Sequence record: OL960581
Direction: 5' to 3' (one strand)
Length of the DNA stretch: 64,000 bases
Source: Escherichia phage vB_EcoM_SA20RB
Shown: in pieces, positions 8,031-54,832 of the stretch
Position numbering within the stretch: position 1 is the first letter of the stretch
Layout: every line of letters starts with the position of its first letter
Program-made: the position numbers and the translations under genes
The notes under the pieces: generated by a model
What the model was told of the DNA's origin: nothing
The model's input: the letters and a program-made list of their open reading frames with translations, nothing else
Databases searched by the model: none

Positions 8031-8429
8031 TTATACTCTGTTACTGGAAGCCAGTTGTAGTTTTATCTGCTCAATATCATCAGGGTTATCGATGACCGAA
8101 AAGCGTATTTCTACTATCAGAGTATAATCATCATAAACTGGTATTACATTAACTGCTAATTTATCAATACGTGGCTCGTAGTTTCTTACTGCGCTTTCAA
8201 TGTTACGCTCAACAGTATCAGCAGTAAGAGGAGTCATATTCTCAAAAAGCTGATCAGATAAATCGCATCCAAATTCTGGGTCAAATGGCCTTGACCCTTT
8301 CCTGGTTGTAATAATTCCTAAAAGACTATTTTTAATTGACCTTAATCCAAGAGATCTGGAAACGTCTTTGTCCCAATCCATTTTCATTTCTGGGTCAATG
8401 TCAGAATAAAGCTTATTAATATTTGCCAT
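8031..8429 (-). CDS. 25: baseplate wedge protein gp25
   Basis: 132 aa, same length as T4 gp25; conserved position. Confidence 0.9.
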   Translation of the reverse strand: MANINKLYSDIDPEMKMDWDKDVSRSLGLRSIKNSLLGIITTRKGSRPFDPEFGCDLSDQLFENMTPLTADTVERNIESAVRNYEPRIDKLAVNVIPVYDDYTLIVEIRFSVIDNPDDIEQIKLQLASSNRV

Positions 8430-9055
8430 TACAATAGCTCAAAGAATTCTTTGAGTCCTCTTATTACATGAGCGTGAGATTTTCCACACTCTGGACACTT
8501 AATTGGAACAGCCAAATAAACAGTAGGCTTTAAAAGCATATCTTTTATAGCTACAATATCTGACTCTGTGATGATAGAATATAAATCTTCCAACTCTTTT
8601 TCATTTAAGTCTTCAATTGGAATGCTTTCACCGTTAGCATGAATCGTTTCTATACATGATACTATCATGTGGGCTATATTTTTATCATCAAAAATTTTAG
8701 GGTAATGGAACTTAATTTTAATGTCACCCAGTGTATACCAGAGGTCTTCTGGTGCATCTATTTGTGTATGTAATAGATTTATATGGGTTGGTATTTCAGT
8801 TCCGCAGGTGCACTTCCAGGAGTTTTCGTGATTAACTTCTCCAAGAGAATGTGCCCATAAATGAATCAATAGTAGTTCTGATTCTTGGCGGTTTAAATCT
8901 TTTGCATTTGTGCATTCTTTGATTAGCTTTTTAACGATCTCTTCTACTGAACCGTTCTTTTTAGCAGTAATAAGTTCTAGATATTCTTTAAGAGTAAATG
9001 CGCGACAGTTGATTATTTTAGAACCAACTCTCACATCAAATTTGTATTCATACAT
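8429..9055 (-). CDS. 26: baseplate hub protein gp26
   Basis: 208 aa as in T4; start/stop overlap with gene 25. Confidence 0.85.
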
Positions 9056-24758: not shown

Positions 24759-24763
24759 TCAAC

Positions 24764-31507: not shown

Positions 31508-33095
<1,588 letters not shown>

Positions 33096-33122
33096 AATAA
33101 AATGGGCCTTGCGGCCCACTCC
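33096..33122 (-). promoter_or_regulatory. structured ribosome-binding site: hairpin between the SD and the denA start codon
   Basis: Minus strand reads TAA-GGAG-TGGGCCGCAAGGCCCA-TTTTATT-ATG; the 5-bp GC hairpin would bring the SD to a normal distance from the ATG. Confidence 0.45.
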
Positions 33123-34292
33123 TTAAAAATATTTTTTAAAACTCATCATAACTTTATCATCAACATCATTATCAATCTGTGCTACAAGGTAAGATGACAG
33201 TTCTACTTCTTGTGGCGCGGATTGAACATTATCAGAATTAAGATATTCACGAATCCAAGGATACGGGTGTTTAACCGGAGCATCGGTAATTGGGCATGGA
33301 AGACCGCACTGTTTCATACGAGATACAGTTAAGTAATCAATAAAGCTCCACATGCTATTTGTATTTAATCCAGGAACATCACCATCTTTAAATAAATGAA
33401 CTGCCCAGTCTTTTTCTTGACGGTTAACTTCCATGAAAATATCAACTGCTTCTTGTTCACACTCTTGGGTGATTTTAACCCATTCATCACCATCAGTGCC
33501 AAGTTGAAGTTGACGAATAATATATTGGGTGCCTTTAAGGTGAAGCTGCTCATCACGTGCAATGAACTTCATAATCTTGGCATTACCTTCCATGATTTCC
33601 ATGTTCTTATGGAAGTTAAAGGTACATGCGAAAGATACATAAAAACGAATAGCTTCCAATGCGTTGATTACGTGCAGGCAGAGGTAAAGAGATTTCATTA
33701 GTGCTCGTTTAGTACATTCAACAACTTTGCCTAACTCTTCTTTACGAAATCCTTCTGATAAAATTCCTTCATAATCTTCAACCGCATTCTGATATTCACG
33801 AGTCTTAACTAGAACATCATCATAATAGCGACCGATAGATTCAGCACGTTTCATGATAGCTTCATCTAGTACAATCTCATCAAATACCTTCGATGGATCA
33901 GTATAAAGATTTCGCATGATATGAGTATATGAACGACTGTGAATAGTTTCACTAAAAGTCCATGTAGCAACCCATGTATCAAGACTTGGGTCTGAAATTA
34001 ATGACATAAGTACAGCAGACGGTGCACGACCCTGAATGCTATCTAGAAGTGATTGATACTTCAAGTTATTAGTAAAAATATCTTGCTGATACTGAGGAAG
34101 CTTGTTAAATTGTGCAGCATCCATCATCAAGTTTACTTCTTCAGGACGCCAGAAAAATGATAATTGCTTTTCGGTTAAATCTTCAAAAACTTTATGGCGT
34201 TGAATATCATAACGCGCAATACCAAGACCTGAACCGAAGAACATAGGTTCTTTTAAAACATCAACTGGATTTGTATTAAAAACTGTGCTCAT
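33123..34292 (-). CDS. nrdB: ribonucleotide reductase beta subunit (uninterrupted, no intron)
   Basis: 389 aa continuous ORF; T4 NrdB as recalled is 388 aa. Confidence 0.95.
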   Translation of the reverse strand: MSTVFNTNPVDVLKEPMFFGSGLGIARYDIQRHKVFEDLTEKQLSFFWRPEEVNLMMDAAQFNKLPQYQQDIFTNNLKYQSLLDSIQGRAPSAVLMSLISDPSLDTWVATWTFSETIHSRSYTHIMRNLYTDPSKVFDEIVLDEAIMKRAESIGRYYDDVLVKTREYQNAVEDYEGILSEGFRKEELGKVVECTKRALMKSLYLCLHVINALEAIRFYVSFACTFNFHKNMEIMEGNAKIMKFIARDEQLHLKGTQYIIRQLQLGTDGDEWVKITQECEQEAVDIFMEVNRQEKDWAVHLFKDGDVPGLNTNSMWSFIDYLTVSRMKQCGLPCPITDAPVKHPYPWIREYLNSDNVQSAPQEVELSSYLVAQIDNDVDDKVMMSFKKYF

Positions 34293-34343
34293 AAATTTTC
34301 CGCTTAGTTAATAGATAGTGACTCGTCCGTGAGTCAAATTATA

Positions 34344-49470: not shown

Positions 49471-49475
49471 ATTGA

Positions 49476-49503
49476 GGGAGCCTTCGGGTTCCCTTTTTCT
49501 TTA
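49476..49503 (+). terminator. terminator hairpin GGGAGCC-TTCG-GGTTCCC after gene 35
   Basis: GC stem with UUCG loop followed by TTTTTCTTTAT. Confidence 0.65.
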
Positions 49504-54011: not shown

Positions 54012-54029
54012 AGAGGGCTTCGGCCCTCT
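54012..54029 (+). other. RNA hairpin AGAGGGC-TTCG-GCCCTCT between genes 37 and 38
   Basis: 7-bp stem with UUCG loop immediately before the gene 38 SD AAGGA. Confidence 0.5.
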
Positions 54030-54040
54030 AAGGATTTTTA

Positions 54041-54832
54041 ATGGCAATTGTAGGTGTTCCTGGCTGGATTGGTGAATCTGCCGTAAATGAAACTGGACAA
54101 CGCTGGATGGATGCTGCGATGAAAGCAGTTCGTGTTTCAGTTCCTGGTTGGATGAGCTCAATGGCTGGACAATCTAAAGAAGTATATTACAGTATTGGTG
54201 CTAGCAATTCTTATAATAAAGACACACTAATAAATTGGATAAAAGCCCAAGGAAGTACTCCTGTTGTTATTACAATTACAGGCAATATCGTTTCTTCATC
54301 GACAGGTCAACCATGCTTAGATTTTCCTAGCTCATTAACTAATGCATACGTTACCTTAAATATTAATAGCGGGGTTCATGTATTAGGTCGGGGAGGAAAT
54401 GGCGGAAGTAACTCTGCCGGTGGAGCAGGCGGAACTGCAATAAATAACGGAATTGGAACTCGTTTAAGAATAAACAATAATGGTATTATCGGTGGTGGTG
54501 GTGGCGGGGGCGCTGGTGCTAGATATCATCCTTTCCCCCAAATGGATATGATATTTGGTGGCGGCGGCGGTCGTCCATTTGGTGCAGCAGGTGCAGCAGG
54601 CGGCGGCGCAGCGGCAGCATCTGCCGCTACAATTTCTGCTCCTGGTAAAGGCACTGTTTCTGGGGTTCACCATGGAGGAGATGGTGGAGATTTGGGGGCT
54701 GCGGGCAAATCTTCATATATTCAAGGTGGTACTGGAGGAACTGTTCACTCGGGTGGCGCAGCAGGTAAAGCTGTTACTGGTAATGCTCCAACTTGGACTA
54801 AAGTTGGTACAATATATGGTGCAAGAGTATAA
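54041..54832 (+). CDS. 38: tail fibre tip adhesin gp38 (T2-type, glycine-rich motifs)
   Basis: 263 aa (T4 gp38 chaperone is 183 aa; T2 adhesin about 262); C-terminal half has poly-Gly blocks (GGGGGGG, GGGGG, GGG) separating variable segments. Confidence 0.85.
   Translation: MAIVGVPGWIGESAVNETGQRWMDAAMKAVRVSVPGWMSSMAGQSKEVYYSIGASNSYNKDTLINWIKAQGSTPVVITITGNIVSSSTGQPCLDFPSSLTNAYVTLNINSGVHVLGRGGNGGSNSAGGAGGTAINNGIGTRLRINNNGIIGGGGGGGAGARYHPFPQMDMIFGGGGGRPFGAAGAAGGGAAAASAATISAPGKGTVSGVHHGGDGGDLGAAGKSSYIQGGTGGTVHSGGAAGKAVTGNAPTWTKVGTIYGARV

Follow-up and report, generated by a model that had tools for sequence, protein, structure and literature searches.

How does a ribosome find the start codon of a gene whose only Shine-Dalgarno (SD) sequence lies 23 nt upstream, on the far side of a stable hairpin? 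The question arises at the junction between nrdB and denA, the gene for endonuclease II, in Escherichia phage vB_EcoM_SA20RB (sequence record OL960581). We analysed a 64,000-nt segment of this Tequatrovirus (T4-like) genome, referred to throughout as the window, in which nrdB, denA and their junction are all encoded on the minus strand. An initial annotation, made from the sequence letters, had noted a hairpin inserted between the SD and the AUG of denA and had suggested that its folding brings the two to a workable distance. From the anatomy, stability and conservation of the element we think it reasonably probable that it is a split ("accommodated") translation initiation region and that, in T4-type phages, it serves as a partial terminator as well.

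A hairpin separates the Shine-Dalgarno sequence of denA from its start codon

The nrdB-denA region of the window is 99.6% identical to that of Escherichia phage REP4 and 95-99% identical to ~490 further records. The upstream open reading frame (ORF) encodes the small subunit of ribonucleotide reductase (Pfam PF00268), and the downstream ORF, which has a GIY-YIG match in Pfam, encodes endonuclease II. Read on the minus strand, the junction is 5'-AAA UAU UUU UAA GGAG U GGGCC GCAA GGCCC A UUUUAUU AUG AAA GAA (Table 1). The linear gap from GGAG to AUG is exactly 23 nt (33118..33096), above the ~15 nt taken as the limit for normal initiation, the hairpin filling 16 of these, and the spacing that remains after folding is 7 nt with a 6-bp stem or 9 nt with a 5-bp stem. 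The order of the elements, their coordinates and the 23-nt distance given by the initial annotation are therefore exact; it had left out two flanking bases, a U 5' of GGGCC and an A 3' of GGCCC, which form the sixth pair of the stem.

The sequence that pairs best with the 3' end of 16S rRNA is UUAAGGAGU (-8.7 kcal/mol), which lies directly 5' of the hairpin. For the tail UUUUAUU between the hairpin and the start codon, the predicted pairing with the anti-SD is 0 kcal/mol, and there is no second SD at canonical spacing.

Table 1. Coordinates of the features of the nrdB-denA junction and of the gene 25 split site in the window
Feature	Position	Strand	Details
nrdB coding sequence, 389 aa, no intron	33123..34292	-	ORF list; Pfam PF00268, E = 1e-37; annotated nrdB in relatives
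nrdB stop codon UAA	33125-33123	-	First three bases of the denA SD UAAGGAG
SD UAAGGAG (GGAG 33122-33119)	33119..33125	-	Sole SD-like sequence upstream of denA
Hairpin	33103..33118	-	5' arm UGGGCC 33118-33113; GNRA tetraloop GCAA 33112-33109; 3' arm GGCCCA 33108-33103
U-rich 7-nt tail UUUUAUU	33096..33102	-	Hairpin to start codon
denA (endonuclease II, 136 aa)	32685..33095	-	AUG 33095-33093; stop UGA 32687-32685
In-frame GUG	33117..33119	-	denA start (144 aa) in T4 RefSeq; rejected as start codon
Gene 25 split site	8427-8460	-	UAAUAA-GAGG(8460-8457)-A-CUCAAAG AAUU CUUUGAG(8455-8438)-CUAUUGUA-AUG(8429)

denA starts at the AUG behind the hairpin

A different start codon would turn the hairpin into coding sequence. 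T4 RefSeq (NC_000866.4) annotates denA at 137517..137951 (144 aa; locus L003 3518-3952), from an in-frame GUG, and a GTG-initiated ORF is also listed by the ORF finder in the window (GUG at 33119-33117). That translation begins there seems to us very improbable. The GUG adjoins GGA with zero spacing, two of its bases lie within the stem, and it is absent outside T4-type phages. The distance from the nrdB stop to the AUG ranges from 24 to 32 nt across genera (27 in T4-type phages), and since these distances do not differ by multiples of three, the frame is not kept. The eight extra codons also change like a base-paired stem and unlike codons. The 136-aa form is the one annotated in most records: the crystallised T4 enzyme (PDB 2WSH) begins MKEIATEY after its His tag, the same start as denA of the window, its E118 numbering agrees with this form, and M1 is invariant in 13 DenA homologues. 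The GUG of the T4 RefSeq record is thus probably a misannotated start, with the AUG 24 nt downstream being correct. The AU-rich sequence around this AUG (CAUUUUAUUAUGAAAGA, 33093-33105, minus strand) presumably resembles the sites of the translational repressor RegA in T4 early mRNAs.

The hairpin is stable beyond chance and the layout is rare

RNA folding had been proposed in the initial annotation as a check on the hairpin, and it bore the structure out. The 33-nt junction folds at -16.4 kcal/mol compared with -6.2 +/- 2.4 kcal/mol for 200 dinucleotide shuffles, none of which folded as well (0/200; z = -4.2), and the 6-bp Watson-Crick hairpin by itself reaches -11.6 kcal/mol. A long-range pairing of nrdB codons (UUAUGAUGA) with the denA tail and AUG, which appears in a 91-nt fold, was rejected: it is weak and rich in A-U and G-U pairs, it makes up 3.7% of the ensemble, and it has no evident conservation in Mosigvirus. 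A scan against Rfam 15 returned no family at the gathering score, the sub-threshold matches being chance ones (L20_leader, 23.4 vs 58.7 bits; Ysr197, 15.4 vs 167).

We then scanned both strands of the window for an SD-like tetramer followed by a hairpin, a 4-12 nt tail without SD-like triplets, and ATG. The pattern matched 4 of the 2473 ATGs. Two of the matches begin ORFs of 50 aa or longer, namely denA and gene 25; the background is 2 in 2471 other ATGs.

The hairpin itself is of a common type. About 20 stable GC-rich tetraloop hairpins occur in the window, mostly with C(UUCG)G or GNRA loops and mostly intergenic, and the denA hairpin is similar to them in stability. It also shares its GC-rich stem, extra-stable loop, position after a stop codon and U-run with the intercistronic tetraloop hairpins and terminators of T4-like phages in general. 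What sets it apart is the position of the SD. As a control set we used the nine other stable hairpins of the window that lie at most 45 nt before a gene start. All nine are followed by a canonical SD (-5.7 to -9.1 kcal/mol) and have nothing SD-like before them, whereas at denA the order is reversed, with the SD before the hairpin and none in the tail. An SD-less tail after a hairpin is not the default layout in this genome.

Examples of these hairpins, which lie on both strands, are those at 202-183, 1561-1540, 3144-3129, 15369-15348, 17756-17741, 19936-19913, 23878-23859, 24760-24739, 40585-40567, 49474-49495, 58370-58349, 62835-62818 and 63064-63047, with the loops UUCG, GAAA, CGAA or similar. 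Several are palindromic enough to fold on either strand, and long U-runs on the minus strand follow those at 24760, 40585 and 58370.

The order of SD, hairpin and AUG is conserved across genera

DenA homologues occur in ~1300 phage records. Two sources supplied the junctions that we compared, annotated phages from a wide range of genera and 46 IMG/VR loci that a DenA profile had picked out. This yielded 20 distinct nrdB-denA junction variants, which come from at least 10 genera (Tequatrovirus, Mosigvirus, Kagamiyamavirus, Gelderlandvirus, Winklervirus, Gaprivervirus, Kanagawavirus, Marfavirus, Karamvirus and Jiaodavirus) and from IMG/VR contigs. All 20 share one order: stop codon with SD, hairpin, a tail of 6-10 nt without an SD (counted from Watson-Crick stems), and AUG. 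The SD is fused to the stop in the forms UAAGGAG, UAAGGA(A/U/C), UAAAGGA, UAAAAGG and UAGGAG; 18/20 variants carry UAAGGA, UAAAGGA or UAGGAG, and the remaining two a weaker UAAGAG. This upstream SD was retained while the C-terminal codons of nrdB, the sequence of the stem, the loop and the tail all diverged. The stems comprise 4-7 Watson-Crick pairs, among them GGGCC/GGCCC, GGGAC/GUCCC, GGGGC/GCCCC, GGGAGAC/GUCUCCC and (A/U/C)AGGGC/GCCCU(U/A/G). Most variants close the stem with a UUCG loop, two have UUAG and CUUGA, and the T4-type phages carry GCAA or GUAA.

The linear distance from GGA to AUG is 21-28 nt among the variants, and the effective spacing after folding is 6-10 nt in 19 of the 20. 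The shortening on which the initial annotation had built its proposal is therefore found in nearly all of them. In none of the 20 did the tail show SD pairing; an alternative SD at normal spacing, the use of which it had named as evidence against its proposal, is absent from these variants as it is from the window.

An alignment of 21 sequences (A2), which adds a variant with a GUAA loop (L020), showed that the stem is maintained by compensatory change. Pairing was observed in 93.5% of the stem cells, with double-sided changes at 4 of the six or seven pairs. One covarying pair is GC 12, CG 5, AU 2 and GU 1, another GC 14 and AU 5, and the closing pair occurs as AU, UA, CG, GC or GU. No column shuffle out of 500 matched the observed pairing or covariation, shifting the partner columns abolished the signal, and the RNAalifold consensus contains this helix only.

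Outside this set the SD can stand on the other side of the hairpin. Citrobacter phage CkP1 has UAA-AGAG at the junction, followed by the hairpin (AAAGAGGGU GUAU GCCCUCUUU) and then GAGG-CUUAAC-AUG, so that a canonical SD, GAGG, follows the hairpin. We rejected this order as a trait of Karamvirus: CkP1 is a single record, and another member of the genus, ZX13, keeps the SD in front of the hairpin. In Krischvirus denA stands behind a different gene, and the hairpin (GGGCGGGA GAAA UCCCGCC) is followed by UUUGUUGUGACGU, GAGGAAAGGAUA and AUG, and the canonical SD, GAGGAAAGGA, again lies behind it. The tails of CkP1 and Krischvirus are long (16-26 nt). A downstream SD thus goes with a long tail, which indicates that short SD-free tails accompany an upstream SD. 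The Aeromonas T4-like phages have no hairpin; the gene upstream of denA is a different one there, and denA overlaps or abuts it.

In Krischvirus (RB49-like; L013/L051/L053) the stretch ~50 nt upstream of denA holds a different small ORF, then UAAUAAGGU with the hairpin and a U-run, and then the SD. This junction may be an intermediate or a relic of the split arrangement.

The layout is nearly identical to that of the gene 25 split site

The initial annotation had stated that some T4 genes are arranged in this way, and two such genes are indeed described. In T4 genes 38 and 25, a structure between SD and AUG cuts an over-long spacing from 22 to 5 nt and from 27 to 11 nt, respectively (PMC3014915). 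Mutations that destabilise the structure lower initiation, and that of gene 25, at the junction of genes 26 and 25, was confirmed by dimethyl sulfate (DMS) probing and is conserved in close T-even phages (Nivinskas et al, 1999; Malys & Nivinskas, 2009; summarised in PMC3014915).

Gene 25 lies within the window. The ORF that starts at 8429 is gp25 (Pfam PF04965), and its GAGG-to-AUG distance of 27 nt equals the literature value. The two layouts are nearly identical: at both, one or more stop codons are followed by the SD, 0-1 nt, a hairpin with a 4-nt loop, an SD-free tail of 7-8 nt and AUG. For denA the values are GGAG, no gap, 6 bp and 7 nt, and for gene 25 they are GAGG, 1 nt, 7 bp and 8 nt. 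Folding shortens the spacing from 23 to ~7 nt at denA and from 27 to ~9 nt at gene 25. Both arrangements are conserved among T-even relatives, and a single pattern scan recovers both. A second hairpin (8491-8470) lies just upstream of the gene 25 site.

The two elements differ in their hairpins. That of gene 25 is AU-rich, with 7 bp, a stability of ~-6.4 kcal/mol, no special tetraloop and no U-run (tail score -1.28; see below), whereas that of denA is GC-rich (-11.6 kcal/mol), carries a loop of the GNRA or UUCG type and resembles a terminator. Gene 25 belongs to the late genes, denA to the prereplicative ones. The gene 25 case was established by mutagenesis and DMS probing, whereas denA is known here from its sequence.

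Gene 38 of T4 likewise has a hairpin between SD and AUG, with a linear spacing of 22 nt compared with 23 nt at denA. In the window, gene 38 is a T2/T6-type adhesin of 263 aa (Pfam PF05268, GP38, and Gp38_N), and its start (54012-54043, plus strand) has the ordinary order of hairpin (AGAGGGC-UUCG-GCCCUCU), UAAGGA, 6 nt and AUG. With this allele the T4 gene 38 split site is absent and allows no direct comparison within the window.

The hairpin also resembles an intrinsic terminator

The denA hairpin has the anatomy of an intrinsic terminator, with five G-C pairs and a U-A pair followed by UUUUAUU. On a d'Aubenton-Carafa-type scale its tail scores -3.94, near the -4.07 to -4.99 of the three hairpins in the window that most resemble terminators and apart from the -0.3 to -2.0 of hairpins that merely precede an SD, and it is annotated as a terminator in the related records fPS-65, MM02 and WFK. 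The hairpin might then act only as an intrinsic terminator and/or a barrier to 3'-exonucleases for the nrdA-nrdB mRNA, with denA translated poorly and unaided on rare read-through transcripts. Ribosomes that finish nrdB at its UAA would unfold the hairpin and start again 27 nt further on, or initiation would be SD-independent and assisted by S1 on the U-rich leader; the upstream GGAG would be incidental or would just hold the terminating ribosome. The GC-rich stem, the extra-stable tetraloop, the U-rich tail and the terminator label given by other annotators all fit this, as do the many genes of the window that are followed by similar UUCG or GNRA hairpins. denA also ends a transcription unit, behind which lies a new promoter-like site for rnlA, and a low level of the nuclease may plausibly be wanted. 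Finally, denA and nrdB RNA belong to different temporal classes: a time-course omics study of T4 placed nrdB and rnlA RNA in the early class and denA RNA in the middle class, and it detected DenA protein (PMC9697503). This difference is compatible with attenuation at the hairpin and does not prove it.

The conservation of the individual parts argues the other way. Across the variants the tail scores range from -0.62 to -3.94 (Mosigvirus -1.22, Kanagawavirus -1.70, L034 -1.68, L046 -0.62), with poor U-runs such as ACUUUAUU, CUUUAGU, AUUUCAU and GUAAAGCU in several genera (scores of -0.6 to -2.0); SD, hairpin and short tail all persist. As the U-run is the least conserved feature, what the subfamily keeps appears to be SD-hairpin-spacer-AUG rather than a terminator as such. 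The tail length is moreover restricted to 6-10 nt, and with the SD behind the hairpin at 9/9 other hairpin-gene junctions, a conserved SD-less tail with an upstream SD needs a reason. We therefore consider a role in termination or mRNA protection only to be unlikely; such a role would not exclude the split-site mechanism and merely denies the hairpin's help.

Since only 7 nt lie between the hairpin and the AUG, there is no room for a promoter of denA's own, and every denA mRNA would thus be a read-through of nrdA/nrdB that carries the hairpin in its leader. A scan of the window for a MotA box with a -10 element gave 41 matches against 37 +/- 6 expected, none of them just upstream of denA. The nearest match, which has one mismatch and lies inside nrdB (33846-33822), was rejected as a denA-specific middle promoter.

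The SD is improbable as a processing site

RegB targets GGAG in the SDs of early T4 genes (PMC1702504). The GGAG beside the hairpin could thus be chiefly a processing or regulatory site, cut by RegB there or by RNase E in the AU-rich tail. The cut would separate the denA AUG from its SD, or nrdB from denA, with the hairpin positioning or blocking it, and a single cut in the tail would be expected to detach SD from AUG. A RegB site requires ~11 nt of single-stranded RNA from the GGA, and GGAG in stable intergenic stem-loops or terminators is resistant (PMC1702504). At denA, the hairpin occupies the 16 nt after GGAG, including those ~11 nt, and most relatives have GGAA, GGAU or GGAC in place of GGAG. 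Processing as the main function is improbable on these grounds.

A probable split initiation region that may double as a partial terminator

The anatomy, the stability and covariation of the hairpin, the lack of a second SD, the conserved geometry and the close match to gene 25 are what the sequences show; we infer that initiation proceeds from the upstream SD and requires the folded hairpin, and that only part of the transcripts terminate. In such a split initiation region, the SD UAAGGAG would be free or only weakly masked, and folding of the hairpin would bring the AUG to within 7-9 nt of it in space. The AUG could then enter the P site of a 30S subunit that has bound at the SD or has just completed termination at the nrdB UAA, as at gene 25. 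Because the denA SD overlaps the nrdB stop codon, a ribosome that ends translation of nrdB already sits on this SD, so that reinitiation may contribute. An SD that overlaps the upstream stop codon is likewise seen in termination-reinitiation coupling; typical coupled junctions of T4, however, overlap (AUGA) or lie within a few nt, whereas the AUG of denA is 27 nt past the stop and beyond a stable hairpin. In T4-type phages, some RNA polymerases would stop in the U-run, by which the nrdB mRNA would gain a protective 3' hairpin and the denA mRNA would be limited. Endonuclease II would then be made from a minority of the transcripts.

Several observations weigh against a split initiation region. 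The denA hairpin is GC-rich and much stiffer than the AU-rich hairpin of gene 25, and its conservation would be equally expected if it served only the termination or stability of nrdB mRNA. The presence of GGA beside the stop codon does not amount to 20 independent events, because related sequences share ancestry. Two variants (L046 and L047) have a weak upstream SD (UAAGAG, -4.2 kcal/mol) that partly runs into the stem, and the effective spacing in the S16 variant is 13 nt. The minimum free energy fold of the single sequence extends the stem onto GGAG through weak G-U and A-U pairs and so partly masks the SD. On the terminator side, a consensus terminator scan of the window did not list the denA hairpin, probably because the G-T extension of the stem consumes the T-run. 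In the searchable literature we found no reporter, toeprint, structure-probing, Ribo-seq or 3'-end mapping study of denA.

The extension between GGAG and the U-run was rejected as a conserved structure. Among the 21 aligned sequences its four pairs are purine-U only and have no double-sided change, and 4-10 sequences are unpaired at each of them.

A stronger form of the proposal, which we put forward tentatively as a possibility, is that one hairpin has two coupled jobs, being a partial terminator and, on the transcripts that read through, an obligatory joiner of SD and AUG. If this is true, a nuclease that destroys host DNA would be gated twice by one structure across the Tevenvirinae, and one cut in the 7-nt tail could detach the SD from the AUG and shut denA off. 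No earlier split ribosome binding site would have been built on a terminator hairpin, and no other known split site of T4-like phages would be as widely conserved. Our search of the accessible literature turned up neither an account of the denA junction as a split site nor a terminator mapped there, although an earlier mention is possible.

Surroundings of the junction

The 389 codons of nrdB run without a break in the window; a group I intron and I-TevIII are both missing. It follows nrdA after 51 nt, and the T4 genes mobE and nrdB.1 are therefore absent. The nrdA-nrdB spacer (within 33123-34343, minus strand) holds a TATAAT-like box, a hairpin (34336-34319), a weak SD (AAGCGGA) and the AUG at 34292. 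Directly past the denA stop, TGCTTCCACATGGAGTGTGGTACTAT (32659-32684, minus strand) combines a MotA-box-like TGCTTC with a T4-type extended -10 (GTGGTACTAT). This promoter-like TGCTTC...TACTAT is followed by AAGAGGA and an AUG for rnlA at 32632. The GTG start that the ORF finder gives for rnlA, at 32668, is probably too long by 12 codons.

Implications for T4-like phages

Split sites, at which initiation is aided by a hairpin that lies between SD and AUG, have been a textbook curiosity of two T4 genes. The mechanism is thus already known from genes 38 and 25, and the junction sequences suggest that denA adds a candidate third T4 split site, on a terminator-like, GC-rich tetraloop hairpin. The split arrangement of denA may be more widely conserved than that of gene 25 (at least 10 genera compared with "close T-even phages" in the wording of the review; PMC3014915). 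For annotation, the denA junction means that gene finders which demand an SD 5-10 nt from the start codon will misplace the start of denA, or score it wrongly, in hundreds of T4-like genomes. A third case would make the split site a recurrent solution rather than an accidental one, and it would show that a GC-rich hairpin of high stability between SD and AUG is tolerated by the ribosome. It would also provide a simple system in which a single element is shared by transcription termination, protection of an mRNA 3' end and translation initiation.

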